Shown here in pieces: positions 1 to 21,993 of a stretch of 64,000 nt of DNA (within the stretch, counting starts at the first letter, position 1; each line of letters starts with the position of its first letter). A program made the position numbers and the translations under genes. The stretch comes from Candidatus Woesearchaeota archaeon (GTDB lineage Archaea > Nanobdellota > Nanobdellia > Woesearchaeales > UBA10216): the NCBI GenBank assembly GCA_016185705.1, contig JACPMZ010000003.1:74900-138899 (forward strand). The letters run 5' to 3'. The notes below the pieces were generated by a model. It did no database searches. It was not told where the DNA came from and was given only the letters and a program-made list of their open reading frames with translations.

Positions 1-3000
1 TGCAAAGCCGGTGCAGACGTCAAGGAAGGTGACGTTGATGCCTGTCGTATCATTAAGAGTAATGTGCTTGGTTCCATTGACAGCATGGAAGGTGCTGCTC
101 TTCTGCGCTGACTGGTTGGCAATGTCTGTAATGTTTGCCTCTATGGTGAAGTTGCCAGTCTCGGCAATGTAATAGGTGTAGTTGTGGTAGTAAGTAAGCC
201 CTGTGCTGCCGTTCTGTATGTGCAGGGGCAAGTCAACAGAAGTGTTTGGCATCATGATGCTGACGTTGATTGCTGAAAGCAGCGTGTCAGGGTTGCTGAC
301 CACTTCAACAGTAATGTTTGTGTTGTTCAGGGCATAGGTGTGGTTGGAGCACAGCAGCGTGATAACAGGCAGAGCAGGGCTGGCATCCAGAACCTGAACA
401 GTGACTCTGCTGGCAGCAGTGCTGTTTGTCGTATCGTTGAAAGCGTAAGCAGTAATGTCAAGGTTCTGGGCAGTGATGTTCTCAACAGTGTAGTTGTATT
501 CCCACGTGTTTGAGCCAACGTCAGCGGCAGTGTAGTTTGTGCTGCGTATTGTTATGTTGACCTCATTAATCCAGCCGGTTCCATTAAGCTCAGAAACATT
601 AACCCTGACAACGTCTCCGGGGAATACCTGCGTCAGGTTGTCAATTGTGATGTTTATGGCAGCGATTACAACTTCCATCACATGGATTCCGGAAAAGTTG
701 GAAACGTTCTGCGCATCATTGCTTCTGACTGCATAGAACATCTGCCCTGACGTAAGGTTCTCAGTAACGGTTCTGGTTGTGCCGGAGATTCCGGTAATGT
801 TTACATGAGGAGTGGCAAGGTCGGCATTGTCATCTATGAGCAGGTCGTAAGTTATTGTGTCGCCGTCGTCATCTGAGGATGCGGTCCACGCGATTATAAC
901 GCTGCTGTGCAGCTGCACAGACCCATTCGCCGGAAGGAGCAGAGTGGTGTTTCCGGGAACCGTGTTTGATACTGTAAAGGTCTGCAGAGTTCCCTCGGCA
1001 GTGTTGCCGCCTGTGTCATTTGCATAGTATTTCCACTGCACAACTTCATTGCCTTCCAGCTCAGAAGAGCCTATCACATATGAGTAAAGGCCGCCTGAGT
1101 TATTCGTAACAGTGGTGTTTGCAAGCGAGCCAGTCCAGTTGCCTTCAACCACCACAACTGATACGCGGGCATCGCTGACGCTGGCATTGACTGTAACGTC
1201 AGAGCTTGCAAGCACAGCAGCAGGAATTCTTGTTTCTCCGCCGATAGTCGGAGAGGCGTTGTCATGCAGGTATCTGAAAGCGTCTGTTGATGTTCTTTGG
1301 TTGCCTGCTGTGTCAAAGGCCTTGACGCGCCAATACCATGTGATATCGGAAATCAGCACATCTGTTGAATCGTAATGCTCAGTCGTTGCATTGTTGGAGA
1401 AGTTCACCCACGCAAAGCTTGAGCTGTTCGTTACTTCAATTGTGTAGTTTGCAAGCTTGGCTTCAGCAGCCGCCTCCCAGGTAAATGTCGGGGTAAAGTT
1501 GTTTTCAACAGCGTTGTCAGCAGGCGTAAGAAGCGTGAAGACGCCCGGAGGCGTGGTGTCCTGCGTGGTTGCATTCTGGACAGTCGTGTTGGTGTTAGAG
1601 GCGTTGTCAATGGCATACAGCCTGATTGAATAGTTTGCCACGAGCAGGCCGGAGGTGTTGAAAGTGCTGTTTTCAGTCAACTGCCGTATGAATGTTCCGT
1701 TGTCAGCATAGGAAATGTTGACATAGCTCTCATTAAGGTGTATGTCGCGGGCAGTCCAGTTAATGCTGATGTTTTCTTCGGCGAGCTCTGCTGTTGCCGG
1801 ATTTACAACAAGCTCTATCAACGGCGCAGAATTGTCTGTTATGTACACGAAAGGCTGCGAAGTAAAGCTGTTGGATGCAAGGTCATAAGCAGTTACGCGC
1901 CAGTACCAGTATATGTCATTTGCCAGCGCAACTCCCGGAACCAGGCTTGTATTTGATGAAGCTGCCAATGCATAATAAGTTGCATTGATTGCAGCAAAGG
2001 TGCTTATGTTTGCTATCTGCAGCGTGTAGTTTGCAAAGTTTGACTCGGTTGCTGCTGCCCAGACAAAGGTCGGGCTGGTGTTGGTAGTAATGGTGTCATT
2101 AACAGGCGTGGTCAGGGTGAACGATGCAGGAGCGGTTGTGTCAAACGTGGCTGTATAGTTGACAGTAATTCCGACGTTTGCGTCAGGAACAACCGCGTCT
2201 GCGCATTCAACAGCCCAGACAAGCTGCACGCCGTCATTTACCCCGCTTATGGAGAATTCAGTATTTGAATTCCGCGTAACGCTTTCATTAGTTGCGTTTC
2301 TCAGATAAGCGCCTGTTGCGTTGTGGAACACGCTGCAGTTTGCAATGCCTGTTGCGTCACTGGCTGTAAACGAAATGTTCAGGACTGTGTTCGTGTAGGT
2401 GTCGTTCAAAGGAGAGGTGACTGTAACGTCAGGCGCATTAACGTCAATGCTGAATGTGAAGGTTGCAGATGTGTTAACGTTCTCTGCCCTGTCCGAGCAG
2501 TTGATGCTCCAGTTGTAAGTGCCCTGGTTCATCCTTAAGGTATAGTTGGTCAAAGTGTTGTTGGCAGTGCTGACATCTGAAATGTTGGTTGTATCGTTAA
2601 TCACGAGACTGCATGTCAGGGGCGGGCTTAATTCATCTATGGCTATCCATGTGAAGTTTACGGTCTGCGGCGATACATTCATGTCCAGCGGCTCAGTGAG
2701 GTTTACGAAGCTTGGCACCCTGTTGTCCAATCTGATGGTGCGGGTTTCGGTGGTGTTTTCAGCCGTATTGTTGCTGATGACAGTAACATTGTAGTAATAG
2801 AGCTCGTGCGGGTTGAGGTCAGTGAAGTTCATCAGGCGCAGTGCTGTGTCGTTTGTGCTTGTGATGTTTGTAACATTTGTTGAGGCATTGTAAAGGGCAA
2901 AGGTTATGTTTGAGATGTTTGTTTCTACAATAGTTACGTTAATGAGGATGAACGACTGGTTCAGGGCTGAATCGTTTGCAGCAGTGTTTGCGATGTAGTC

Positions 3001-6000
3001 AATGAACGGAACATTCCTGAGCTGAGTGAAATTTTCAATGTACTGGTTGTTGGCAAAGTCAGTTGCATTAATGGTGATGTTGTAGTGCGAAGCATTAATC
3101 TGATTGGCGTCAAAGCTGATGTTCCAGTAACCATTTGCACGGTCGCCAACATACAGGTCCGGCTTGAGCCATTCTGTCGCCGAGTGAGGCGTCATTATTC
3201 TCACTGAAACGTTCACAAGATTGGTCTGCGTGTCATTTGCGGAGATGTTAATCAGGAAAAAGTCTGTGTGGTGGACAGAGTCGTTAACGAGGTTTATTAT
3301 GGAAATGTTTGGAATGGTGTTGTCAAAAACAACCGATACATTGCCGGTTACAGTCGGGAAGAGGTTGCTGTTGGATGCATTGACCGTGATGTTGTAGCTG
3401 CCTTCCGGAAATGCAGTGGTGTCAATCGTGGCGTTCCAGTAACCAGAAGTTGTGGTTCCTGAGCTTAAGCTCAACGGGATAAGCCCTGTCTGGTTGCCTG
3501 AGGAATTAAGAAGGGTTGCATTCACCGCGCTGACAGTAACAGTTCCGGTTTCATTCACCGATACGTTAATCAGGAGGTTTCCGGATATGTTTGCCCTGTT
3601 GACAGGAACTGTTATGGATACATTTGCAGGGTCATTGTCAATTGTAATTGTGGAAGCGTTTGTTACATTCTGGTTGCCTGCAACGTCAGTGGCGTTAATC
3701 GTAATGTTGTACTCGTCATCGCCAGTGTTTGTTGTTATGAGCGTTGCGTTCCATGAGCCCACGAACAGAGTGCCATCAGACAGGTTGGCATCAAGCCAGT
3801 CAAGCACTGTGTCGCCGTCTGCGGTCTGAAGCCTGTAAGTTACATTCAGGACTCCGCTCGTGGTTTCATTCACAGAGCCGTTTATCTGTATGGTGCCGCG
3901 CTGCACTGTTCCCGAAGCCGGTGTTATTACAGATATGTTGGGAGGCGTGTTGTCAATGGTAACTGTTGTTGCGTTGGTTACATTCTGGTTCTTTACGAAG
4001 TCAGTGGCGTTGATTGTGATGTTGTACTCGCCGTCTGCAATAGCCGTGCTGTCAAACGTCATGTTCCAGTGGCCGTTATCGGCGTTGCCATCGTAGAGCT
4101 TCACGTCCAGCCAAGCAGAGGTTGTGCCGCCTGCTGAATGCAGCCGGAACGTAACATTCATCACTCCTGTGCCAGAATCATTCACTGAGGAGTTAATCAG
4201 GAAACTGCCTAACTGTGTTGAGCCGCTGACAGGAACCATTATTGACACGTTAGGCACGTTATTGTCAATGGTTATGGACACATTCTCAGATATGTTTGTG
4301 TTTCTGCTCTTCTCATCAGTCCACGGAATGCTTCCTGAGTCAGTGGCATTAGAGCTCAAATTGTATACGCCGTCAGCAATGCCCAAGGCAACAGTGTCAA
4401 TGGTTACGTTCCGGTAGCCGGATTTGAGCGAGCCAACGCTTAAATTAGTGGCGATGGGCGAAACTGAATGCACAGAGCCGGGCCGAAGCAAGCTGATATT
4501 AACGTCAGGCACATCGCTTTCAGTGTCATTTACAGAAACGTTTATCGTAAAGGAGCCGGAAATGTTTTCCATTGCAGCAGGCAGCTGGATGCTGTTGTTC
4601 GGGGGAGTGGTGTCGAGCTCAATCTGCAGGTGGGTGTGGTTTACGATAACAAAGTCGTAGGGATTTGTTCCCTCTGACCAGCCGACTGCGATGTCTGTGT
4701 TGTTGGACACCTCCGGGGCAGTAAGCCCCTGCTTGACAGTTGAGGTGTTGACAAGCGTAAACTCCCCAGACCATGAGGTGTTGTCCCAAATCCTGTAAAG
4801 AACGGATTCATTGCCCTCAGGCGTGACATTAATGTAATACAGGAACAGGTGAGTGTCGTTCCTGCTGAGAACAGGGCCTGTCAGCTTTGGCAGGTTAGAG
4901 TCAGGTGCGGTAAACTGCTGAACCAGCGTCCAATCTGTCCTGTCGCCGCCGTCGCTTCTGAAATGACTGAGGGAGGTGTCGTTTGCAAAAACCACGTGGA
5001 TGTCAATATCGCCGCTGTTGTTGAACGAAATACCGCTCCATTGAGACGCGGAGCCTGTACCTCTGCCAAAAGTGGTGGATGCGGTCTGGGCTACGGCAAC
5101 CCCGCCATTCCAGGTGACATTCGATGCTTGGGCACCATCGCCTGCTGACACTGAAATCCTCATCATGTTGCCATTCTGAAGCGGGAAGAACTTGGACGAA
5201 GGGAAATTGGAGCCGGTGCTAGGCAGAGTCACATTCCAGTCGCCATCCCAGCTGTCGCCGTTGTCCGGATTAAGACTGTAATTATTCGGGAAAGTACTTG
5301 AGTGGCAGTTATTGCCTTCCTGGCCCGCAAAATAATAGTTCTCAGTGCTGATTCCAACTGTGGCGCCTGTGCCAGCGCACGCATCAGCCTGCTGTTTCAG
5401 CGAATAATTTATGGTAAAGTTGACGCTGCCGTCTGGAAAGGTGTTGCCGCGGGTGAAATTCATATATTTCTTAGTGCCATCATCACGAAGGCCAATAAAC
5501 AGGAAAGTGTCAAAGCCGTTTATTTCCTTGTAAACAACGTCGCCCCTGCTGGTGGTCCCGCCAGGCTGCTGCTCAGGGCTGCCCTTATTCCACACCACAA
5601 GGTCTGAACTGAAGTTGTGCTTGTATACATTGCTGTCAATATACCACGCAAACCAGTTGTTCCCGTCCCAGAAAATCTTTCTTTCGTAAGGAAAGTTGGA
5701 GATGATTGCTGAGTCAGTGAAAACAGTCGGGTCTATTGTTATGTTGCCTGCGTCCTTAATGCCATTAATCCGCACGACACTGCCGTCGCCTGATAAAGCA
5801 AAGCTGGATGCGATGTCAGAAAAGTCATACGTCAGGCTGCCGAGGTTTATCTGCATGGCATCGTGGTCAATGTTGAGCAGCCCGATGTTTGAGCTGCTGA
5901 AGTCCATGCCCAGGTATTCCATGCTATTCTTCAGGTTCTGGCAGTCCTGCGTGGCGTTCGCCAAAGTTAATCCAAAGTCCTGCTTCCAGCTGTTCAGGTC

Positions 6001-8712
6001 AATGTCTGACTTATCCCAGCTGAGTGCGTAGCAGCCGGCAGTATCCTCGGGAACGTAATGCCTGTTTCCGTTTGCGGACATGAAAACCCTGTAGCTCAGC
6101 TCGTTCCGGCTGCCGGAGTCTGTCCAGTTAAGGACAAAATGGGAGCTGTTCCAGGCAAACTGCGTCTGGAAGTCGCTGATGCTCTTGCGTGCCACGCGCA
6201 CAACTGTATCAGGCGAAAGCACGTCGTAAAATGCTTCAGCAACCGCTCCTGAGTAGTTGAAGTGCTGCACGTGCCTGCCATTGGTTTTTACAGTTGCCGT
6301 ATGGAACATTGTCTGGTTGCATTCCAGATTCCTTACTGAGTATCCGACGATATGGCTGCCGTCAGTCAACACTTCAGGGGCAATTACTGTTTCGCCGCAG
6401 CTGAACTGCACGAATTCAAGGTCCGGCTGCCGCTGCACGCCGTCCTTAAAGCCGGAGTAGCTCGTGCCGTTTGCAGCGGTTATTGTCAGGTTGCCGATGC
6501 CGGTTGCGTTAAATTCAACAGTCCAGTTCCTCTCAATGAAATCCTTTGTGTAAACATTAAAGATGAATATCTCAACCTCGTACAGAATGCTGCTTAAGCT
6601 TGGAACTATCCACTCAACCCTGTCAATCAGCCCGTTACTGTTGGTGTCAATTTTCTTAATGCCAGTGATTTCCACTTTTGTTCCGTTGACCAACGCGAAA
6701 AGCTTAACGAAATTCTCAGGGGTTTCCCTTATGTCAGTGTAGGCAGTGATGTTTTCGTAATGGGTTTCTGAAGAGATGTTAATCTGCTTCCTCGTTGAAT
6801 CTGTTTCATTTTCCATGGCTATTGGCGCAGGCGTCTGGTATTCCACTTCCAGCTCGGTGGCGTTTTCCTCAATAACCAGCGTTATGTTTTCGTCCACAGT
6901 GTCCTTCAGCAGTTTTTCCCTGGATGCTGCGACTGTTTTCAGGTGGCTGTCAAGCGTCTCAACTTTTTTGCCGATGCGCTCCTCCCTCTCAACCTTTACG
7001 CTGCCTGCAATGCTTTCGTTGTTTTCCCTGACTGTGATGTTAATTGCTTCCTTGGGAATCTCTGTTGTTGTGCTGGACTCATTCACCAGCGTGATTATTT
7101 TCTTCCACGACACTGGCTCGTTGATAACTGCCCGGCCCTGCACCAGTGTTTCGTCCTTGTCAGTAATGTTGCTGCGCGTTATGTTGAATGTGTTGGAGAC
7201 AGCAGAGTAGTCCAGGTCGGATGCTGTGATGAAGGCAAAGGCAGTTCCTTTGAATCCATTTTCAGCCAGTATGGACGCTGTGCCATCTGCAATATCTATC
7301 TTAACATCTCCTATGACTGTCGCATTGTAAGTAAGCTCATCACTGTCAGGGTCTTTGAAATGCTCGGGCAGCAGGATTCTTGCGCCAGTTGTCATGTTGC
7401 CAATGTCTGCGAAGAAATATGGCGGCCTGTTATCAAGATAGACTGTCAGTTCAGCAGTGTTCCCGGTTGTGGAGTTTAAGTCAGACGCTGTAAAAGTTAT
7501 TAAAGCTGTTCCTGCAAAGTTTTTTGCATGCGTTATCGCTGCAATGCTTCCGTTGATTGAAACATCTGCTATGTCAGCCAGCGTATATGTTGCTGCAAAC
7601 ATCAGCTCATCCCCTTCAGCGTCGTAGAAGTACCTGCTCAGGTTCAGCGTAAGCGTAGCATTCTGCTTTATGCTTTGGGCAGGTATTGGAAGCGCTTTCG
7701 GAGCGGCATTTTCCGAGAATGCAGCTTTGTAAGTCAGCGAATCTATGACAAGGACTGCATCCTGGACTGAAACAATCAGCTTTGCAGACCTGCTCGTTCC
7801 GCTTAATGCGCAGGTTTCAACACATTTGTTGCTGAATCTTGTTACCGGCAGGAACACTGCCTGCAGCGAGCTCCACCCGCTCGAGACAACATCCACAGCA
7901 GGTTCAGTAATTTCAAGGGTGTAATTCGCATAGATGACCTGCGCGCTCACAGTGTTGTTAAAGCCAGTTCCATAAGCTCCGTAAGGAATGTTGAGGGTCT
8001 GCCAATTGTTGGAAACAGGAGCAAGCTCTGCCAGGCTGCAGCATGCGGCATTGCCATTGCAGATAACAGTGGAAGTGTCTTTGTTTGCAGGGGCAATCTG
8101 CCAGCGCGTGCACAGATTTTCTTCAGGAACAGGCCAGCTGAATGCGGTGTTGTGCACTGTGTAGTCAATCGAGCCCTCACTTGTGTCAATGCCGTCATCA
8201 TCAGGGTCAAAGGCTGTTCCTGAATTGTACTCAAGCACGACTTCAATTGACTTATCAGCACTTTCAACCTGCCTGCCTGCTGCGGCATCTGACTCATCGG
8301 TTGCATTGGGAACAAAGTCAAATATCGGAACAGTGGTGTGCAGCTCCCTTATGTCCCTGACAAGCTGGCCTGATATTGACAGGAAGTTGCCGTTGCCATT
8401 GCCGGAAGCGGATTGGTTAAGGACAACATAACGCTTCCCCTCAATTTCAAGCAAAACAGCTACAGGGCCTGTTCCAACAATCACGCCGCTTACCGAAACT
8501 GAAGATGGAGGGGCATCCAGAGCCAGAGGAATTTCAGCATATGTGGCATTTGCAGACGATATGTGCAGGTCAAGCGTCTGTGTAATGGTTTTCTCAGCCA
8601 CCAAAAAGCCGGTAAGAGAAAGCTGGTCTGCGATTGCCAGCAGTGTAAGCATCAGAACTACAGCGAACACTGCTGCTCCGAATCCCTGCGCGGCTCTTTC
8701 AGAGCGGGTCAT
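1..8712 (-). CDS. giant secreted/surface adhesin-like protein (>2,900 aa; C-terminus beyond window start) with N-terminal hydrophobic signal/anchor, many Ig-like repeat domains and dense N-x-S/T sequons
   Basis: ATG at 8712-8710 preceded by GGAGGT; one continuous minus-strand frame to position 1 (all listed small minus ORFs in 1-8700 lie in a different frame and plus ORFs are antisense shadows); N-terminus MTRSERAAQGFGAAVFAVVLMLTLLAIA; ~105-aa tandem repeats (TIDNxxPNxS...YNITINATD...NQNVTNA) encoded by ~318-bp DNA periodicity around 3370-4650. Confidence 0.8.
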   Translation of the reverse strand, partial: MTRSERAAQGFGAAVFAVVLMLTLLAIADQLSLTGFLVAEKTITQTLDLHISSANATYAEIPLALDAPPSSVSVSGVIVGTGPVAVLLEIEGKRYVVLNQSASGNGNGNFLSISGQLVRDIRELHTTVPIFDFVPNATDESDAAAGRQVESADKSIEVVLEYNSGTAFDPDDDGIDTSEGSIDYTVHNTAFSWPVPEENLCTRWQIAPANKDTSTVICNGNAACCSLAELAPVSNNWQTLNIPYGAYGTGFNNTVSAQVIYANYTLEITEPAVDVVSSGWSSLQAVFLPVTRFSNKCVETCALSGTSRSAKLIVSVQDAVLVIDSLTYKAAFSENAAPKALPIPAQSIKQNATLTLNLSRYFYDAEGDELMFAATYTLADIADVSINGSIAAITHAKNFAGTALITFTASDLNSTTGNTAELTVYLDNRPPYFFADIGNMTTGARILLPEHFKDPDSDELTYNATVIGDVKIDIADGTASILAENGFKGTAFAFITASDLDYSAVSNTFNITRSNITDKDETLVQGRAVINEPVSWKKIITLVNESSTTTEIPKEAINITVRENNESIAGSVKVEREERIGKKVETLDSHLKTVAASREKLLKDTVDENITLVIEENATELEVEYQTPAPIAMENETDSTRKQINISSETHYENITAYTDIRETPENFVKLFALVNGTKVEITGIKKIDTNSNGLIDRVEWIVPSLSSILYEVEIFIFNVYTKDFIERNWTVEFNATGIGNLTITAANGTSYSGFKDGVQRQPDLEFVQFSCGETVIAPEVLTDGSHIVGYSVRNLECNQTMFHTATVKTNGRHVQHFNYSGAVAEAFYDVLSPDTVVRVARKSISDFQTQFAWNSSHFVLNWTDSGSRNELSYRVFMSANGNRHYVPEDTAGCYALSWDKSDIDLNSWKQDFGLTLANATQDCQNLKNSMEYLGMDFSSSNIGLLNIDHDAMQINLGSLTYDFSDIASSFALSGDGSVVRINGIKDAGNITIDPTVFTDSAIISNFPYERKIFWDGNNWFAWYIDSNVYKHNFSSDLVVWNKGSPEQQPGGTTSRGDVVYKEINGFDTFLFIGLRDDGTKKYMNFTRGNTFPDGSVNFTINYSLKQQADACAGTGATVGISTENYYFAGQEGNNCHSSTFPNNYSLNPDNGDSWDGDWNVTLPSTGSNFPSSKFFPLQNGNMMRISVSAGDGAQASNVTWNGGVAVAQTASTTFGRGTGSASQWSGISFNNSGDIDIHVVFANDTSLSHFRSDGGDRTDWTLVQQFTAPDSNLPKLTGPVLSRNDTHLFLYYINVTPEGNESVLYRIWDNTSWSGEFTLVNTSTVKQGLTAPEVSNNTDIAVGWSEGTNPYDFVIVNHTHLQIELDTTPPNNSIQLPAAMENISGSFTINVSVNDTESDVPDVNISLLRPGSVHSVSPIATNLSVGSLKSGYRNVTIDTVALGIADGVYNLSSNATDSGSIPWTDEKSRNTNISENVSITIDNNVPNVSIMVPVSGSTQLGSFLINSSVNDSGTGVMNVTFRLHSAGGTTSAWLDVKLYDGNADNGHWNMTFDSTAIADGEYNITINATDFVKNQNVTNATTVTIDNTPPNISVITPASGTVQRGTIQINGSVNETTSGVLNVTYRLQTADGDTVLDWLDANLSDGTLFVGSWNATLITTNTGDDEYNITINATDVAGNQNVTNASTITIDNDPANVSITVPVNRANISGNLLINVSVNETGTVTVSAVNATLLNSSGNQTGLIPLSLSSGTTTSGYWNATIDTTAFPEGSYNITVNASNSNLFPTVTGNVSVVFDNTIPNISIINLVNDSVHHTDFFLINISANDTQTNLVNVSVRIMTPHSATEWLKPDLYVGDRANGYWNISFDANQINASHYNITINATDFANNQYIENFTQLRNVPFIDYIANTAANDSALNQSFILINVTIVETNISNITFALYNASTNVTNITSTNDTALRLMNFTDLNPHELYYYNVTVISNNTAENTTETRTIRLDNRVPSFVNLTEPLDMNVSPQTVNFTWIAIDELSPPLTCSLVINDTTNISDVSTANNTLTNYTLRMNQGTYNWSINCSDRAENVNTSATFTFSIDVNAPDVTVTSPLNDTYTNTVLNISFTASDATGIANCSVFHNATGAYLRNATNESVTRNSNTEFSISGVNDGVQLVWAVECADAVVPDANVGITVNYTATFDTTAPASFTLTTPVNDTITTNTSPTFVWAAATESNFANYTLQIANISTFAAINATYYALAASSNTSLVPGVALANDIYWYWRVTAYDLASNSFTSQPFVYITDNSAPLIELVVNPATAELAEENISINWTARDIHLNESYVNISYADNGTFIRQLTENSTFNTSGLLVANYSIRLYAIDNASNTNTTVQNATTQDTTPPGVFTLLTPADNAVENNFTPTFTWEAAAEAKLANYTIEVTNSSSFAWVNFSNNATTEHYDSTDVLISDITWYWRVKAFDTAGNQRTSTDAFRYLHDNASPTIGGETRIPAAVLASSDVTVNASVSDARVSVVVVEGNWTGSLANTTVTNNSGGLYSYVIGSSELEGNEVVQWKYYANDTGGNTAEGTLQTFTVSNTVPGNTTLLLPANGSVQLHSSVIIAWTASSDDDGDTITYDLLIDDNADLATPHVNITGISGTTRTVTENLTSGQMFYAVRSNDAQNVSNFSGIHVMEVVIAAINITIDNLTQVFPGDVVRVNVSELNGTGWINEVNITIRSTNYTAADVGSNTWEYNYTVENITAQNLDITAYAFNDTTNSTAASRVTVQVLDASPALPVITLLCSNHTYALNNTNITVEVVSNPDTLLSAINVSIMMPNTSVDLPLHIQNGSTGLTYYHNYTYYIAETGNFTIEANITDIANQSAQKSSTFHAVNGTKHITLNDTTGINVTFLDVCTGFA

Positions 8713-8963
8713 GCCCTACCTCCAAAAACATTGTCCTCAAACACCCAGACAGCACCTTTCGTGCTAATCACGATTTTTTTGCTGAGCTGCAGGTAGTCAA
8801 GAACCTGAAGCAAAGTGCCGTGCATCACCTTTTTCGGAAGCTGCCTTTTGATGTCAGCAACGCTCAGCGGCTGCGCAGAAGACTTGAGAACGCCCTCAAC
8901 CATGAGAATGGTGTTCAAAGTAGGAGAATGCATGCTCCGGGATGTACGCCCCTTTTTCCTCAT
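8709..8963 (-). CDS. small (84 aa) basic winged-helix-like DNA-binding protein, translationally coupled (ATGA overlap) to the giant surface-protein gene
   Basis: ORF MRKKGRTSRS...; stop TGA 8711-8709 overlaps ATG 8712-8710 of downstream gene; helix-rich basic sequence. Confidence 0.5.
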   Translation of the reverse strand: MRKKGRTSRSMHSPTLNTILMVEGVLKSSAQPLSVADIKRQLPKKVMHGTLLQVLDYLQLSKKIVISTKGAVWVFEDNVFGGRA

Positions 8964-9779: not shown

Positions 9780-11282
9780 TCAAAGAAATGCATTCAACAC
9801 TACTTGCTGTCTGGATAAATAATACTGCTCAACAAGATGATCAGGTAGAGGTAGCCTTTCTAAATTTCTAGGTTCAACCTTTACAGCTCCAGAACCATAA
9901 CTCTTACCAACCAATTTTAGATTCTCAATGGTTTCTGGGTGATTCAAAATCTCCCATAATGCATTAATGTACTTCTCATCATTTCTCTTAGGGTATACGC
10001 ATAAAAACCCAGTCAGGGGAACAACCCCCGCTTCATTTTTGATAAATCTTGAATTTCTACGACCTAAATACGCAAATAGCAATGCAGGAGTCTCTCTTCT
10101 CTCCATATAGTACCATTTCTTTCTTTGCTTAATCAATGCTCTGTTAGGTAAATCTAACTTAACTCCTTTTTTTATATAGTTAGCTAATGTTTCAGGAAGG
10201 TTCTCACACTGTTGATTTATTGATAATAAATATGTTGGTCGCCCTTTATCTTCAAGTTCTCGTATATCTTCTTTGCTCAGCAGATTACCTGTTGCATCTC
10301 TCGTTCTACCGATTGCTAATTTTAAAAAATTTTTTGGTATTTGCAGTTCCTCCACTTGTTCTTTTGTAAGAAAAAAAAATTCGTTTGCTCCTGTAGCAAT
10401 CCCTCTCATCACATTAGCAAAATCGCTTAGATGATACTTGAATCCATTATTTAGTTGTTGAGGTCGTGATAGTCCAGTCTCTAAAGCCTCTTTTAATGTT
10501 CTTGTTGTTATTTCAAGATTGTTTAATGACCTATCCTGGAAATCAGACTCTGCAAAATTGTAAAGGTCATCTGTATCAGCTTTATTTACTCTTACCCATT
10601 TAATTTCTTTTTTTTGCATCTCTTTTTTTATGAAAAATATAACTGCATTTGTATCTATTGACGGAAAGGGTGTTGCTTTTTCATCAAAGGTAATTACACA
10701 CTCTAAAGAAAAATTTCTGGTTATCCAATTCCATAATCGTTTAGCAAAAGTTCCCTCGCATGTATCTGCCGGCATAATAAATGCTAATCTTCCTTTATTC
10801 TCCAATAAGCTTAAAGCCTGAATAAGAAAATAGATATGATAACCGGCACGCCCATCGATTATTACTCCTGTCTTCTTTTTAGATAATTGTTTTAAAAATA
10901 GTTTTGTTTCTTTATCTATTCTGTGATGTCTAATATAAGGGGGATTAGCAACAACTGCCTTAAATCTTTCATTTGGTGGATTCTTTAAGAAATCTCTCTG
11001 TTCGACATGGCAATTTACTTCCTTGTAGATATCTTCTTTAAGAACTTCTATATCAATGTCTATTCCGTAGAAATTAGTATTTTTACTTCTATCAATTTCA
11101 TTCAATGCTTTCAGGAATGCACCGCTTCCGGTCCCGGGGTCGAATATCTTGCTTGAATTTTTCTTTACGTAAGAAACCATAGCTTTAGCTACCCAATTTG
11201 GTGTCCAGAATTGACCCTTATTCCTCAATTTTTCTCTTTCTTCGTGTTTTGTCGGTATCTTCTGACTTGCCATTTGAATCAT
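9780..11282 (-). CDS. type II N6-adenine DNA methyltransferase, gamma class (TaqI/Eco57I-like) with C-terminal target-recognition domain
   Basis: motifs FWTPNWVA (motif X), DPGTGSGAFL (motif I, SAM), NPPY (motif IV) in gamma order; 500 aa. Confidence 0.85.
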   Translation of the reverse strand: MIQMASQKIPTKHEEREKLRNKGQFWTPNWVAKAMVSYVKKNSSKIFDPGTGSGAFLKALNEIDRSKNTNFYGIDIDIEVLKEDIYKEVNCHVEQRDFLKNPPNERFKAVVANPPYIRHHRIDKETKLFLKQLSKKKTGVIIDGRAGYHIYFLIQALSLLENKGRLAFIMPADTCEGTFAKRLWNWITRNFSLECVITFDEKATPFPSIDTNAVIFFIKKEMQKKEIKWVRVNKADTDDLYNFAESDFQDRSLNNLEITTRTLKEALETGLSRPQQLNNGFKYHLSDFANVMRGIATGANEFFFLTKEQVEELQIPKNFLKLAIGRTRDATGNLLSKEDIRELEDKGRPTYLLSINQQCENLPETLANYIKKGVKLDLPNRALIKQRKKWYYMERRETPALLFAYLGRRNSRFIKNEAGVVPLTGFLCVYPKRNDEKYINALWEILNHPETIENLKLVGKSYGSGAVKVEPRNLERLPLPDHLVEQYYLSRQQVVLNAFL

Positions 11283-12214
11283 GCTTTTTCCAAAACATCC
11301 AATGCTTCCTGAGTAATGTCCATTAAGCCTCCATTAAAAGTAACATAAGGCAATATGTGGCCATTTTTATCTTCAATATACTGAGGCACTAACTCCGGTT
11401 TACTTTTTGAGATGCCCAGTTGATAAGCATAAAGATAATATATTTTGTATATGGCTTTACTTGTAGTTGCTCCACCTGGAGCTTGGAAAACTTGGATAGT
11501 TTGCTGAATTAATCCTTCGTCGAACAATCTTTCAGCTTCATCCAGAGCTATACCGTATGCTCTGTCAAAGAATACATGCCAGATATGTATGGGGATCTTA
11601 TTCTGGCTCTGCCATTTTTTTAATGGGGCTCTATCTTCCTCTTTTATAATTACTGTTGGAACAACTGCAGTTTTCTTCAGACCCATTTTTCCTTCCAATC
11701 GCTTCCGGGGAGTAAGTTCACTTCCATAGTCTGGCATTTTCTCAGCCACCCAAAGAGAATTTTCACATTCAACAGCAATTATTGCTTTTTGGATAAGTTC
11801 TTTCATCTCATCTTCTTTAATGAACGGAAGTTCGCTTGCCCCACCAACTTTACCAAGAAATTTGTCAACAAAAGCTTTATCTCCTATTTTGAAAACAAGT
11901 ATATCTGGTCTCTTAATATCTCCTAAACCTGCTTTTTCAAGTCTCTCGAAATATAATTCAAAGGCTCTAACATCATCAGTTGGCGCTGTTCCACTTGGCC
12001 CATAAGGGATTGCATAGAATTTTCTAGTTTTATTAACTGCTTCTATTACTCGTTTCTCACTCCACACTCCTTGCGACCAACGCATCAAAAAATCACTACC
12101 TCTTAATCTTCTCGGATTAAGCAAGAAATTTGACCAACCCACCTCCTTTAAACCTCTAAGTTCTAGTTCAATATCCTCGAGCATTACACTCAGTATCTTC
12201 TCAAACGGATGCAT
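11279..12214 (-). CDS. putative cognate type II restriction endonuclease (311 aa); identity not provable from sequence
   Basis: 4-bp overlap (ATGA) with downstream methyltransferase gene, same strand; possible PD...(D/E)xK-like segment RPDILVFKIGDK / AIIAVECE; no match to housekeeping families. Confidence 0.45.
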   Translation of the reverse strand: MHPFEKILSVMLEDIELELRGLKEVGWSNFLLNPRRLRGSDFLMRWSQGVWSEKRVIEAVNKTRKFYAIPYGPSGTAPTDDVRAFELYFERLEKAGLGDIKRPDILVFKIGDKAFVDKFLGKVGGASELPFIKEDEMKELIQKAIIAVECENSLWVAEKMPDYGSELTPRKRLEGKMGLKKTAVVPTVIIKEEDRAPLKKWQSQNKIPIHIWHVFFDRAYGIALDEAERLFDEGLIQQTIQVFQAPGGATTSKAIYKIYYLYAYQLGISKSKPELVPQYIEDKNGHILPYVTFNGGLMDITQEALDVLEKA

Positions 12215-12224
12215 TTTTTATCAT

Positions 12225-12626
12225 CTACTTTTCCAAATATATATAATCAGAGGGGGTAATGTTAATTATAGACCTCCCCATTAATACTGTTCCCCATCTC
12301 AAAGTATTCTTGAATATAGATAAATTAGCAGGAATATTTTTCCCGCTTGACCAATTGTTTATTTCAATGGGGTTTTTTAAGATTAATTTAGGTTCGATAT
12401 CAATATAATATTTAAATTGCTTATTCCTAAATCTTACTTTTTTCTGAGAAGGTATTGACTTTATTTCAAACGTGGCACAAATTCTTTTAGGTATAAGATA
12501 GATGACTAAACGATCCCCTTTTTTGATTAAATTGTATTGATTTTCAGATTTTACTGCATAAATATTATTGGATTGAATTTTTTCCCAATTCTCCTCATCA
12601 GTTAGAGCTAACCAATACTTAGTCAT
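12225..12626 (-). CDS. EVE domain (PUA-like, PH1033 family) protein, predicted modified-base-binding reader
   Basis: MTKYWLALTDEENWEKI...GDRLVIY...FEI...LRWG...DYIYLEK closely parallels the Pyrococcus PH1033 EVE-domain pattern (YWIxxTxENWExI...GDxLVIY...RW). Confidence 0.8.
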   Translation of the reverse strand: MTKYWLALTDEENWEKIQSNNIYAVKSENQYNLIKKGDRLVIYLIPKRICATFEIKSIPSQKKVRFRNKQFKYYIDIEPKLILKNPIEINNWSSGKNIPANLSIFKNTLRWGTVLMGRSIINITPSDYIYLEK

Positions 12627-19926: not shown

Positions 19927-20016
19927 GCGGCGCACAGCGCAAGGAAGCAGTTCAGCGATTAAAATGGAGCAGGGCGCAGCATATGCCTGGAAAGCGGACT
20001 TAACAAATCCGCAAAC

Positions 20017-20049: not shown

Positions 20050-20182
20050 AGCCCCGTAGTGTAGCGGCCAACCACACCAGCCTTTGGACGCAGAGGAAAG
20101 CTGGGGACGGCGGTTCGAACGAGAAATCGGAGATTTCTGGTGTCCCAGAACCTCCGGTTCTGCGACAATCCGCCCGGGGCTA
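20050..20182 (+). tRNA. tRNA-Gln(TTG) with two introns: 11-nt intron at canonical 37/38 (20088-20098) and 49-nt intron in the T-loop near 59/60 (20120-20168); mature length 73 nt, no encoded CCA
   Basis: acceptor AGCCCCG/CGGGGCT + discriminator A; D-arm GTGT-AGCGGCCAA-CCAC; anticodon stem CCAGC/GCTGG with loop CTTTGG[intron]A; T-stem GGCGG/CCGCC with TTCGAA[intron]T; T-loop intron forms two hairpins (AGAAATC/GATTTCT and CAGAACC/GGTTCTG). Confidence 0.75.
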
Positions 20183-20183
20183 T
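20167..20183 (+). repeat. att-like core (aatccgcccggggctat) = 3' end of tRNA-Gln; first of three direct copies
   Basis: tccgcccggggctat repeated at 20755-20769 and 21094-21108. Confidence 0.85.
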
Positions 20184-20199
20184 GCTCTAATCCACAAAA

Positions 20200-20207
20200 T
20201 TTATATA
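20200..20207 (+). promoter_or_regulatory. TATA box (tttatata) 23 nt upstream of leaderless toxin gene
   Basis: position relative to ATG 20230. Confidence 0.4.
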
Positions 20208-20229
20208 CTGGTTCTAACATGTTATAACA

Positions 20230-20427
20230 ATGGAGCTTGTTTTTACCCTTCACGCCAAACGGCAAATGGTTGAGCGGGGTATCAGTAAGCAACAAGTCAT
20301 TGATACAATCAAAAAAGGAGGGAAAGTCAGGCAAACAGATGGTTTGCTTGCATCTTACGCTTACATTAAGGTCGCATTTAAAATCAGGGGAGAAAAATAT
20401 ATCATTAAAACGGTCATGATAACATGA
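20230..20427 (+). CDS. DUF4258-family putative toxin (65 aa)
   Basis: HAKRQMVERGISKQQVIDTI matches DUF4258 signature (HAxERMxERGIS..ev); 4-bp overlap with downstream zinc-finger/AbrB gene. Confidence 0.55.
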   Translation: MELVFTLHAKRQMVERGISKQQVIDTIKKGGKVRQTDGLLASYAYIKVAFKIRGEKYIIKTVMIT

Positions 20428-20753
20428 GCATATGCTATGTCTGTGACAAAGGAAAATTGTTGAAGAAGAAAGTTGATTTCAAAGTATACGGCGTAAGTCT
20501 GGGCAAATTCAACGCTGAAGTTTGCGGTAATTGCGGTGAAACATACTTTAGCGAGAGGGTGTCTGATGAAATGGACACTATTGCCAAGAAAAAGGGGCTG
20601 TGGGGATTGGAAGCAACGACAAAAGTCGGCAAAGTTGGCAATTCCATCGATATTAAAATTAATAAACGCATTGCAGATTTTGCCGGATTAAGGAAAGGGG
20701 AGGAAGTAAGGATATACCCTGAGGGCAGAAATAAACTCATCATATCTGTTTAG
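20424..20753 (+). CDS. putative antitoxin: YgiT/MqsA-type zinc finger fused to AbrB/SpoVT swapped-hairpin DNA-binding domain
   Basis: CYVCDKG...CGNCGETYFS zinc ribbon; C-term IDIKINKRIADFAGLRKGEEVRIYPEGRNKLIIS AbrB-like; paralog at 63406-63735. Confidence 0.6.
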   Translation: MSICYVCDKGKLLKKKVDFKVYGVSLGKFNAEVCGNCGETYFSERVSDEMDTIAKKKGLWGLEATTKVGKVGNSIDIKINKRIADFAGLRKGEEVRIYPEGRNKLIISV

Positions 20754-20754
20754 C

Positions 20755-20769
20755 GTCCGCCCGGGGCTA
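20755..20769 (+). repeat. second copy of tRNA-3'-end att-like core, followed by TATA box 20784-20792
   Basis: tccgcccggggctat. Confidence 0.85.
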
Positions 20770-20798
20770 TTTCTGTAGCAAATTTTATATACGGCAAT

Positions 20799-21023
20799 AT
20801 GTTGAATACTCCTATGGGCAAGAAATATACCATAATAGTGGAAAAAGACGAAGCTGGTTGGCTGGTCTCTGAAGTAGTTGAACTTCCCGGTTGCCATACC
20901 CAAGCAAAGGATATGAATCAGCTTATAGAGAGGACTAAGGAAGCCATACAAGCTTATCTGGAAAACGGGGAGCAACCCGAAATTTCTGAGGAATTCGTTG
21001 GCGTTCAGCAGATAGAGGTGTAG
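20799..21023 (+). CDS. hicB: HicB-family antitoxin (probable leaderless start at ATG 20814)
   Basis: YTIIVEKDEAGWLVSEVVELPGCHTQAKDMNQLIERTKEAIQAYLE matches HicB/UPF0150 consensus. Confidence 0.8.
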   Translation: MLNTPMGKKYTIIVEKDEAGWLVSEVVELPGCHTQAKDMNQLIERTKEAIQAYLENGEQPEISEEFVGVQQIEV

Positions 21024-21027
21024 TTCT

Positions 21028-21135
21028 TTGGCTAAATTGCCAAGACTGACTGGGAAGGAACTTGCTAAAGTTGCAGAGAAATTTGGATTTGAATCCGCCC
21101 GGGGCTATTTTATCAGTATGCAAACACTTATATAA
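21028..21135 (+). pseudogene. hicA: HicA toxin remnant: first ~22 codons (LAKLPRLTGKELAKVAEKFGFE) then truncated/replaced at the att-like repeat
   Basis: TTG start 21028; HicA N-terminal signature KLPRLTGKEL..K.LEKLGF; homology ends exactly where repeat 21092-21108 begins. Confidence 0.6.
21092..21108 (+). repeat. third copy of tRNA-3'-end att-like core (aatccgcccggggctat), followed by TATA box 21128-21136
   Basis: 17/17 identical to 20167-20183. Confidence 0.85.
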
Positions 21136-21144
21136 CTAAATCCT

Positions 21145-21993
21145 ATGCCTAAAAGCATGAGCAAGGTCATCCTAATCACCGGCTGCTCCTCAGGAATAGG
21201 ATTGGCAACAGCAATATTTCTCGCAAAGCAGGGCAACAAAGTGTATGCTTCCATGAGGGATTTGAACAGGAAAGGGAGTTTAATGGCTGAAGCAGCGAAT
21301 GCAGGCGTTTCTGTCGAATTACTGCAGCTGGATGTTACTGACGACAACAGCGTAAAAAAAGCAGCAGCCCAAATCATTGAAAAAGAAGGCAGAATTGACG
21401 TTCTGATTAACAACTCAGGCTACGGATTAATGGGCGCTGCCGAGAGCGTTACAATTGAAGAAGCCAAGGCAGAGTTTGAAGTAAATTTTTTCGGTCTGCT
21501 GAGAGTCACCCAAGCTGTGCTTCCGCATATGCGCAAGCAGAAGTCAGGGCACATCATCAACATAAGCAGCATAGCAGGAATAAAGGCAATGCCGGCCTCT
21601 GACTTGTACAACGCCTCAAAGTTTGCTGTCGAGGGGCTGACAGAGGCGATGGCTCCAACTCTGCGTCTGCTTGGCATAAAAACGAGCCTGATAGAGCCGG
21701 GCCCTGTTGCAACAAAATTCGTGCCTTCAATAAGATTTGGAAGCAGGCAGGCAGGAAAAGCAGAATACGCTGGCGCAATGGAAAAAATGAGCGCTTCCCG
21801 CAGAGAACGCTTCAGCTCTGCCCAGAAGCCTGAAGAAATCGCTGCAATAATCAATGAAGCAATCACTGCCAAAAAGCCGCATCTTCGCTACCAGACAAGC
21901 GACTGGGTGAAAAATGCTGCGAAGGACAAGCTTGCTGAACTTACGGGCGACAGCATAGTTGACAGCTACATGGATACGCTAAAAAGAGAATAG
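21145..21993 (+). CDS. short-chain dehydrogenase/reductase (SDR) family oxidoreductase (probable leaderless start at 21157)
   Basis: TGCSSGIG cofactor motif, NNSG, YNASK (YxxxK) catalytic motif. Confidence 0.85.
   Translation: MPKSMSKVILITGCSSGIGLATAIFLAKQGNKVYASMRDLNRKGSLMAEAANAGVSVELLQLDVTDDNSVKKAAAQIIEKEGRIDVLINNSGYGLMGAAESVTIEEAKAEFEVNFFGLLRVTQAVLPHMRKQKSGHIINISSIAGIKAMPASDLYNASKFAVEGLTEAMAPTLRLLGIKTSLIEPGPVATKFVPSIRFGSRQAGKAEYAGAMEKMSASRRERFSSAQKPEEIAAIINEAITAKKPHLRYQTSDWVKNAAKDKLAELTGDSIVDSYMDTLKRE

Follow-up and report, generated by a model that had tools for sequence, protein, structure and literature searches.

'Gene capture' by archaeal integrative elements was reportedly described by She and colleagues. 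In streptococci, cis-mobilizable elements (CIMEs) and the accretion of integrative and conjugative elements (ICEs) give rise to non-autonomous segments that are flanked by attachment (att) sites, occupy the 3′ end of a gene in tandem and use the recombinase of another element. Archaeal elements integrate at the 3′ ends of tRNA genes, form tandem arrays there and can persist as remnants that lack an integrase, and their att sites have a median length of 17 bp in Thaumarchaeota (Krupovic et al. 2019, PMC6563490). Integrons and clusters of attC sites lacking integron-integrases (CALINs) with many toxin-antitoxin (TA) cassettes have been found in archaeal metagenome-assembled genomes (MAGs), including those of Nanoarchaeota (Ghaly et al. 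2022, PMC9668308). Here we describe three short repeats and two TA modules behind a tRNA-Gln(UUG) gene in a 64-kb stretch of DNA from a Woesearchaeota archaeon (GenBank assembly GCA_016185705.1, contig JACPMZ010000003.1, positions 74,900 to 138,899; hereafter the window, with positions counted from its first letter). This array is probably a decayed member of a widespread family of small integrase-less cassettes that are swapped at the tRNA-Gln end.

The locus shares with archaeal tRNA-integrated elements the direct repeats of the tRNA 3′ end, the intact tRNA gene, tandem occupation and the common TA cargo, and its att sites of 14 to 17 bp are close to the thaumarchaeal median. It differs from them in that units here are 0.3 to 2 kb long and hold no integrase or replication genes, and in that the units of its relatives in other genomes are exchanged whole, with an end motif on one side only, and are not visibly decayed large elements. 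With integrons and CALINs it has in common small, mostly single-operon cassettes, a recombination site at one end, the prominence of TA genes and the lack of a neighboring integrase. In the relatives, one cassette also occurs at different array positions and is shuffled between genomes; the window keeps a remnant of the end motif and the copy of the repeated tRNA sequence (the core) that follows it. In contrast to integrons, however, the tRNA-Gln 3′ end takes the place of an attI site beside intI, every cassette has its own promoter, and the motif of approximately 30 nt plus core lacks attC R″/R′ boxes. An earlier note on this DNA had called the array integron-like. This holds as a functional analogy, for the array, the site at one end and the TA cargo, although intI, attC-type sites and a consistent hairpin are all lacking. 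CIMEs are similar in being non-autonomous, att-flanked tandem segments at the 3′ end of a gene, but they are bacterial and tied to a known ICE integrase, whereas no helper element was identified for the tRNA-Gln cassettes. Partial, non-canonical pieces of tRNA genes occur in prokaryotic genomes (PMC9897764); those described here differ in organizing a multi-cassette array with a family-specific arm. An incomplete search of the literature revealed no description of the tRNA-Gln cassette arrangement.

The three repeats are located as follows.

20167..20183, + strand: repeat R1, attL-type, comprising the tRNA 3′ exon and the discriminator base
20754..20770, + strand: repeat R2, attR-type junction of cassette 1, with the exact core at 20756-20770
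21092..21108, + strand: repeat R3, distal att copy, which abuts chromosomal DNA

The 17-mer AATCCGCCCGGGGCTAT, which the earlier note had listed three times, is exact at 20167-20183 and 21092-21108, whereas the middle copy has CG for AA as its first two bases. The part identical in all three repeats is the 15-mer TCCGCCCGGGGCTAT, starting at 20169, 20756 and 21094. The 17-mer is not a common genomic motif: the window contains only these three matches, against 0.12 expected, and three were reached in none of 100 shuffles. A looser search over the 64 kb with a 12-nt core gave no further convincing copy. The repeats delimit unit 1 of 587 bp (R1 to R2) and unit 2 of 338 bp (R2 to R3). The proposal of serial integration at a tRNA was thus supported, in the sense that att-type duplications of the tRNA-Gln 3′ end bound foreign DNA in two tandem units.

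The tRNA gene from which the repeats derive comprises the following parts.

20050..20182, + strand: pre-tRNA-Gln(UUG) gene with two introns; exons 20050-20087, 20099-20119 and 20169-20182
20088-20098, + strand: predicted intron 1, 11 nt, at the canonical 37/38 position
20120-20168, + strand: predicted intron 2, 49 nt, in the T-loop, with a boundary ambiguous by 2 nt

Neither ARAGORN, with or without its intron option, nor Rfam, at the gathering threshold and at E-values up to 10, reported a tRNA in the window, because the two introns hide this gene. The acceptor stem, D-arm, anticodon arm (CUUUGGA) and T-stem of an archaeal tRNA-Gln(UUG) can nevertheless be read by eye in 20050-20182. The exons were settled by manual splicing and by homology with relatives, which replaced a blind enumeration of intron pairs that had produced many spurious tRNA calls. 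ARAGORN calls the spliced 73-mer tRNA-Gln(ttg), with a perfect cloverleaf, and 68 of its 73 positions are identical to the tRNA-Gln of relatives (loci L014 and L089; loci are designated by L numbers); the anticodon stem differs by a compensatory A-U/G-C change. An intron at the canonical position of intron 1 is also present in relatives, and eight other tRNA-Gln genes carry a T-loop insert of 13 to 115 nt at the same place, between TTCGAA and (A)ATCC. The splice sites were drawn by hand from the fold and form only relaxed pairings resembling bulge-helix-bulge or bulge-helix-loop structures. Both introns are predicted to be spliced, and the gene, as far as its sequence indicates, is a functional locus. 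The T-loop insert ends exactly where the att core begins, and the repeated 17-mer corresponds to the 3′ exon, the discriminator base and one flanking T.

The carriers of T-loop inserts are L024, L032, L039, L048, L068, L086, L110 and L114; these MAGs are mostly titled as DPANN archaea (Aenigmatarchaeota, Woesearchaeota, Micrarchaeota, Iainarchaeum), L039 as Methanosarcinales and L068 as 'uncultured archaeon'. More speculatively, the T-loop introns of DPANN tRNA-Gln genes might be fossils of cassette insertions, or might protect against them. Because both ARAGORN and Rfam overlook this tRNA, under-annotation in DPANN probably affects such arrays and tRNA genes in general. Further multi-intron tRNA genes may hide in the 64-kb window.

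The two units carry four genes.

20230..20427, + strand: DUF4258 toxin gene, 65 aa (Pfam PF14076, E=1.7e-8)
20424..20753, + strand: antitoxin gene, 109 aa, with an N-terminal YgiT-type zinc finger and a C-terminal AbrB/MazE-like domain
20814..21023, + strand: hicB antitoxin gene, 69 aa (Pfam HicB_lk, PF15919, 1.9e-6; PDB 2yzt, 4.9e-8)
21028..21135, + strand: truncated hicA with a TTG start, of which only codons 1-21/22 (21028-21093) are HicA-like

The assignment of segment 1 to a DUF4258 toxin and a zf-YgiT/AbrB antitoxin agrees with PF14076 and with NCBIfam TIGR03831 for the YgiT finger (26.6 bits against a cutoff of 20.2); the AbrB-type match, 'doc_partner', is weak. The toxin gene and the antitoxin start overlap by 4 nt (ATGA). 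The antitoxin has 25 homologues in DPANN, from Nanoarchaeota and Woesearchaeota, and the DUF4258 and YgiT genes stay adjacent in L012, L015 and L016. Searches of PDB sequences gave no relatives for either protein. The pair is probably active and may stabilize the locus. The modules resemble type II TA systems of the HicAB and MqsRA kinds in their two-gene operons, the HicB and HicA homology, the YgiT finger as in MqsA and the 4-nt overlap. Unlike in MqsRA, the antitoxin joins the YgiT finger to an AbrB-type domain instead of the helix-turn-helix of MqsA and, unlike in HicAB, hicA keeps 21-22 of 75-77 codons.

The hicB gene most likely starts at 20814 and not at the mechanical open reading frame (ORF) start, 20799. 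Its product is 100% identical over 69 aa to P0026, an NCBI protein of 'Candidatus Woesearchaeota archaeon'. Complete HicA proteins have 75-77 aa in L139, L142 and L144; tblastn matches to them reach only codons 1-21/22, beyond which the frame continues through R3 to a stop at 21135. As claimed earlier, segment 2 is therefore hicB plus a hicA that loses homology at the third repeat. No continuation of hicA was found in any frame, and thus no full-length HicA is encoded here in another one. With hicA truncated, the HicAB module is dead. The left flank of R3, GGATTTG/AATCC, resembles the tRNA T-loop, GGTTCG/AATCC (the slash marks the boundary), and hicA homologues read GGATTCG at the codon of the R3 junction, so that a microhomology-guided deletion from hicA to the att copy would be the simplest origin of this junction. 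Complete hicBA relatives sit at other loci without core copies. By eye, the complete hicBA of L139 has flanking inverted 14-mers (TTGAGAAAGTCGGC and GCCGACTTTCTCAA, at about 3970-3990 and 4442-4460) and also a loose direct repeat (GCATATAACG..GCTGTTATA).

Each of the three repeats is followed by a TATA box, as the earlier note had observed, at approximately the 20 nt that it gave. In the following list, the chromosomal gene behind the array is included with its box.

20201..20207, + strand: TATA box of cassette 1, 23 nt before ATG 20230, in a promoter region homologous to that of L012
20211-20228, + strand: palindrome between this TATA box and the DUF4258 start (GTTCTAACATGT and ACATGTTATAAC), partly conserved in L012 and L015
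20785..20791, + strand: TATA box of cassette 2, 23 nt before ATG 20814
21128..21134, + strand: TATA box of the chromosomal short-chain dehydrogenase (SDR) gene, 23 nt before ATG 21157
21157..21993, + strand: SDR gene, 278 aa (Pfam adh_short, 1.4e-52), in the chromosomal flank outside the array

The boxes begin 18, 15 and 20 nt past R1, R2 and R3, respectively, and each lies exactly 23 nt ahead of a start codon. The heptamer TTATATA is itself enriched in the window, with 21 occurrences against 4.15 expected. The further idea that each att copy brings its own promoter was not retained: the boxes belong to the downstream genes, and the third is the promoter of the SDR gene, whose most likely start is 21157 (Logan gene calls give 278 aa). 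The palindrome is likely an operator through which the antitoxin would autoregulate the operon. A scan for sigma-70 promoters and intrinsic terminators had no information value for an archaeon and was discarded.

The window is assigned to a wider family of cassettes because cassette 1 is homologous to cassettes of two other loci. In L012, the promoter is homologous, the toxin and antitoxin have 75% and 69% aa identity to those of cassette 1, respectively, and the TA pair is bounded by an exact 17-mer and a copy of motif plus core. In L143, the antitoxin is 88% identical, and a divergent motif, ATTTTAACATATTTGTTTATCG, is kept together with the core. Alignment of the right end of cassette 1 with these loci reveals a deletion of approximately 20 nt relative to L143 and of approximately 44 nt relative to L012. 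The last antitoxin codons and the R2 left flank that supplies them, ATATCTGTTTAGCG, correspond to the distal half of the L143 motif, and it is this alignment that identifies R2 as the attR-type junction of cassette 1. In L143, the 3′ end of hicA lies directly upstream of a truncated DUF4258 gene. The hicBA and DUF4258 cassettes are thus adjacent in both the window and L143, in opposite order, and the tRNA-distal toxin gene is broken in both. This fits insertion at the tRNA-proximal position, a pattern that comes from two cases only.

Two side observations concern L012. At 5740-5765, nothing but GCCCCG, a match to the 5′ acceptor strand of tRNA-Gln, stands before its left att copy, so that the left end looks like a tRNA-Gln from which positions 8-57 were removed by internal deletion. 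The assembly that contains L012 and L070, GCA_964504135.1, is titled 'uncultured Methanosarcinales archaeon', although its tRNA-Gln flank is 92.9% identical to that of a Woesearchaeota MAG, with which it shares cassettes; this bin may be mislabelled or mixed. In L015, a 43-nt direct repeat (5654-5696 and 6356-6398) surrounds a homologous DUF4258/YgiT cassette. It consists of the last 13 codons and the stop of a 99-aa Dph2-like ORF, and all five differences between its copies are synonymous, suggesting that both evolved as coding sequence.

We scanned tRNA 3′ ends in one genome per GTDB species. The sequence AATCCGCCCGGGGCTA proved to be the usual 3′ end of archaeal tRNA-Gln in many phyla, with unrelated bacterial matches scattered in the scan. 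A second copy of the 14-nt core, with 1 mismatch or fewer, lies downstream on the same strand at 15 of 75 archaeal tRNA-Gln loci. Upstream sequence and the opposite strand, searched to the same extent (264 kb and 270 kb), contain no copy at any of the 75. At about three of these 15 loci, the copy apparently belongs to an adjacent tRNA gene (a second tRNA-Gln or tRNA clusters); the others are fragment copies. In Woesearchaeota, an arm that reads (GAATCCCTC or AGCCCY)TTTTTAACA(G/A)AAACA.TGAGTG stands ahead of most secondary copies, and the core comes after it; the consensus TTTTTAACA(G/A)AAACA..GAGTG stands before secondary copies in at least 12 independent loci. Another six loci came from a metagenome scan for the arm; several of them have two or three copies, spaced 0.7 to 1.6 kb apart. 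The array of L042 is closed by a third copy of the motif, and that of L093 by one without a core. In other Woesearchaeota the cassettes measure 0.5 to 2 kb and include no integrase gene. Their cargo comprises a VapB-like antitoxin with its partner, a ParE/YoeB-like toxin, MazE with PIN, DUF4258 with YgiT, Fic/Doc and Bro-N.

Comparisons between these genomes reveal discrete units. Up to the last base of their tRNA-Gln, L070 and L124 share 92.9% identity over 1224 nt; beyond it they are unrelated, except for a 41-nt end motif. The Bro-N cassette directly behind tRNA-Gln(UUG) in L070 shares 95.2% identity over 1119 nt with the second-position cassette behind tRNA-Gln(CUG) in L042; the match begins directly behind the core copy in L042 and at a distance of 37 nt from it in L070, and its other end is at motif plus core in both. 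A VapB-like cassette is 89.5% identical between L042, where it occupies the first position, and L162, where it lies behind a degenerate core. L042 and L093 have in common the tRNA and the downstream ERCC4 gene (86% aa), with entirely different cassettes between them. The comparison of empty and occupied tRNA-Gln loci, which the earlier note had called for, thus yielded nothing for the species of the window but was possible in other Woesearchaeota, with L070/L124 and L042/L093. Such exchange of discrete units is the pattern predicted by site-specific insertion of small cassettes, and large elements decaying independently would hardly produce it.

The latter possibility deserves consideration, since the earlier note had read the array as the footprint of integrations whose integrase and most of whose cargo had been lost. 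Two full-size, integrase-bearing elements, proviruses or plasmids, would have integrated serially and been whittled down by random deletion, with the addictive TA genes surviving. In favor of this reading, archaeal elements are known to integrate at tRNA 3′ ends, with short att sites and in tandem arrays (PMC6563490), deletions did occur here, as the truncated hicA and the motif lost at R2 attest, and the short loci fetched could under-sample large elements. Random decay, however, leaves unexplained why an intact motif of approximately 30 nt plus core is found on many independent small units, why a 1.1-kb cassette recurs at 95% identity behind different tRNAs with ends at, or within approximately 40 nt of, cores, and why sister genomes differ by whole cassettes and nothing else in between. 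Moreover, no integrase fragment was seen in any unit. We thus consider the remnants of large elements an unlikely explanation, the short cassettes with motif plus core at their right end behaving as exchanged units.

Casposon insertions produce 14-15 bp target duplications and target tRNA 3′ ends. The 14-15-bp repeats described here could similarly be target-site duplications made by a casposon-type (Cas1) transposase, with the cassettes as non-autonomous derivatives, and in both respects they resemble casposon insertions. In the Fic cassette, TTAACAGAAA is present as an inverted copy, roughly 10 nt in from each end. Terminal inverted repeats were rejected as a general feature, since they are present in that cassette only: the DUF4258, VapB-like, Bro-N and ParE-like cassettes have none, and the motif is one-sided. 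No Cas1 or transposase was found in the ORFs of the window or of the arrays that were scanned. In addition, core copies in arrays often start with TG, CG or AG, against AA in the tRNA, which fits attP-derived rather than duplicated sequence. A casposon origin is therefore very improbable.

Alternatively, the extra copies might be functional RNA or DNA signals, such as 3′-processing sites, terminators or spare 3′ exons for the split T-loop. The repeat does equal the 3′ exon that follows the T-loop intron, and some variants of the motif begin with AGCCCC, which can pair with GGGGCT (in two of five folds). Yet five motif-plus-core sequences folded as DNA gave no consistent structure, and neither an attC-like nor a tRNA-like fold was supported, with a z-score below -2 for one of the five and positive z-scores for three, and no Rfam family matches the cassette-end motif. 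In the window, R2 and R3 have no upstream partner strand; the former overlaps a stop codon, and the latter is situated within a broken ORF. As the strictly downstream location of the copies and the turnover of the cassettes fit recombination, a signaling role is hardly credible.

In L057, a Woesearchaeota MAG locus (nzgw50), two tRNA genes have a 3′ end of this tRNA-Gln type, and behind each of them lie two homologous gene-less units of approximately 100 nt (3804-4096 and 5166-5446). Each unit ends in the 3′-end allele of its own tRNA (CCCGGGG or CCCAGGG) and contains an inverted piece of the T-arm, GATTCGAACCGCC, and a motif similar to the cassette end, AACACAAAAGGTGAG.

For the swapping of small cassettes at tRNA-Gln, we propose the following mechanism. 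The last 14-15 bases of tRNA-Gln (TCCGCCCGGGGCTA[T]) would serve as the chromosomal attachment site. A cassette would consist of its own leaderless promoter and one to three genes, mostly TA, Fic/Doc or Bro-N, and its intact right end would comprise a T-run, the conserved motif TTTTTAACAGAAACAGTGAGTG and then a copy of the core. Recombination between the motif plus core of the cassette and the core of the tRNA, at a site presumably near the 3′ edge of the latter, would insert the cassette, leaving the tRNA intact and a core copy on each side. A site-specific recombinase acting in trans, probably of the tyrosine type, would catalyze the reaction, and the T-run in the motif may terminate the transcripts of the cassette. 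Repeated insertions would stack cassettes into an array. In the window, a short deletion would then have removed most of the right-end motif of the tRNA-proximal cassette, whose toxin and antitoxin genes are apparently intact. In the distal hicBA cassette, a deletion ending at the last core copy would have cut the toxin gene after codon 21-22, probably guided by microhomology between GGATT(Y)G and GGTTCG, and left an orphan HicB antitoxin. The order of these insertion and deletion events is the one that we find plausible. The mechanism predicts specific junctions: ...GGTTCTGCGACAATCCGCCCGGGGCTATTTTATCAGTATGC if the tRNA is joined directly to the SDR promoter, ...CCCGGGGCTATTTCTGTAGCAAATT if it is joined to cassette 2, and ...CTGTTTAGCGTCCGCCCGGGGCTATGCTCTAATCC for a circular form of cassette 1.

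Extending this model beyond the window is more tentative. Woesearchaeota, and perhaps other DPANN archaea, may possess a hitherto undescribed cassette platform, with tRNA-Gln as the acceptor, a site of approximately 45 nt (T-run, AACAGAAACAGTGAGTG and core) and a recombinase encoded elsewhere, which would shuffle TA, Fic/Doc and Bro-N genes between both tRNA-Gln isoacceptor loci and between genomes. The window would be a decayed example of it.

Several observations weigh against the cassette model. The full right-end motif is absent from the window's own copies, and none of the tRNA-Gln arrays at the loci examined contains a relative of the hicBA cassette. The TA pair of L015, with its other type of repeat, indicates that at least one other insertion route exists. 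The fetched loci were at most 8-10 kb long, so that larger elements at the site would be missed and the predominance of small units is inflated. Neither a recombinase nor a circular form or free element came to light, and collections of viruses, phages and plasmids gave nothing. More specifically, no recombinase or integrase was found among the 28 window ORFs scanned against Pfam, nor any recombinase in the cargo or flanking ORFs scanned at the arrays of other loci; motif-plus-core and motif-only patterns had 0 matches in IMG/VR, in which GTCCGCCCGGGGCTA retrieved only unrelated contigs of 48-69% GC, apparently not archaeal; and the antitoxin found nothing among viral contigs, plasmids and phages. 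Lastly, no syntenic relative of the window emerged from a GTDB scan with the antiporter or among 140 fetched loci, and no empty or differently occupied version of the window locus was found: all 11 Logan contigs of the organism, which come from nine sequencing runs, match the window at 99.9% identity and have the same arrangement.

In two Logan samples, the contigs of this organism are interrupted shortly before the tRNA: L009 and L010 stop at 19984, and L005 begins at 19955. The breaks could represent population variation or only assembly.

Elsewhere in the window, one uninterrupted frame of at least 2905 codons occupies 1-8715 on the - strand and runs off the left edge; it is presumably a gene for a giant protein. 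An island of low GC content (35-37%, against approximately 47%) extends over 9780-12626 on the - strand and is probably a horizontally acquired restriction-modification system, with the following genes.

9780-11282, - strand: Eco57I-like N6 DNA methyltransferase, in the low-GC island
11279-12214, - strand: AccI-like restriction endonuclease, in the low-GC island

Taken alone, the window represents modest biology, with one TA pair that is probably active and one that is dead; the cassette family is the more interesting result. DPANN archaea, whose genomes are tiny, are believed to rely on hosts and gene exchange, and how they acquire genes is very little understood. If the tRNA-Gln mini-cassette array is what we propose, it would represent a concrete mechanism of gene capture for these organisms, with a motif-plus-core signature that is easily searched. 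The cassette platform, if real, would explain part of the abundance of TA, Fic and Bro-N genes in their genomes.

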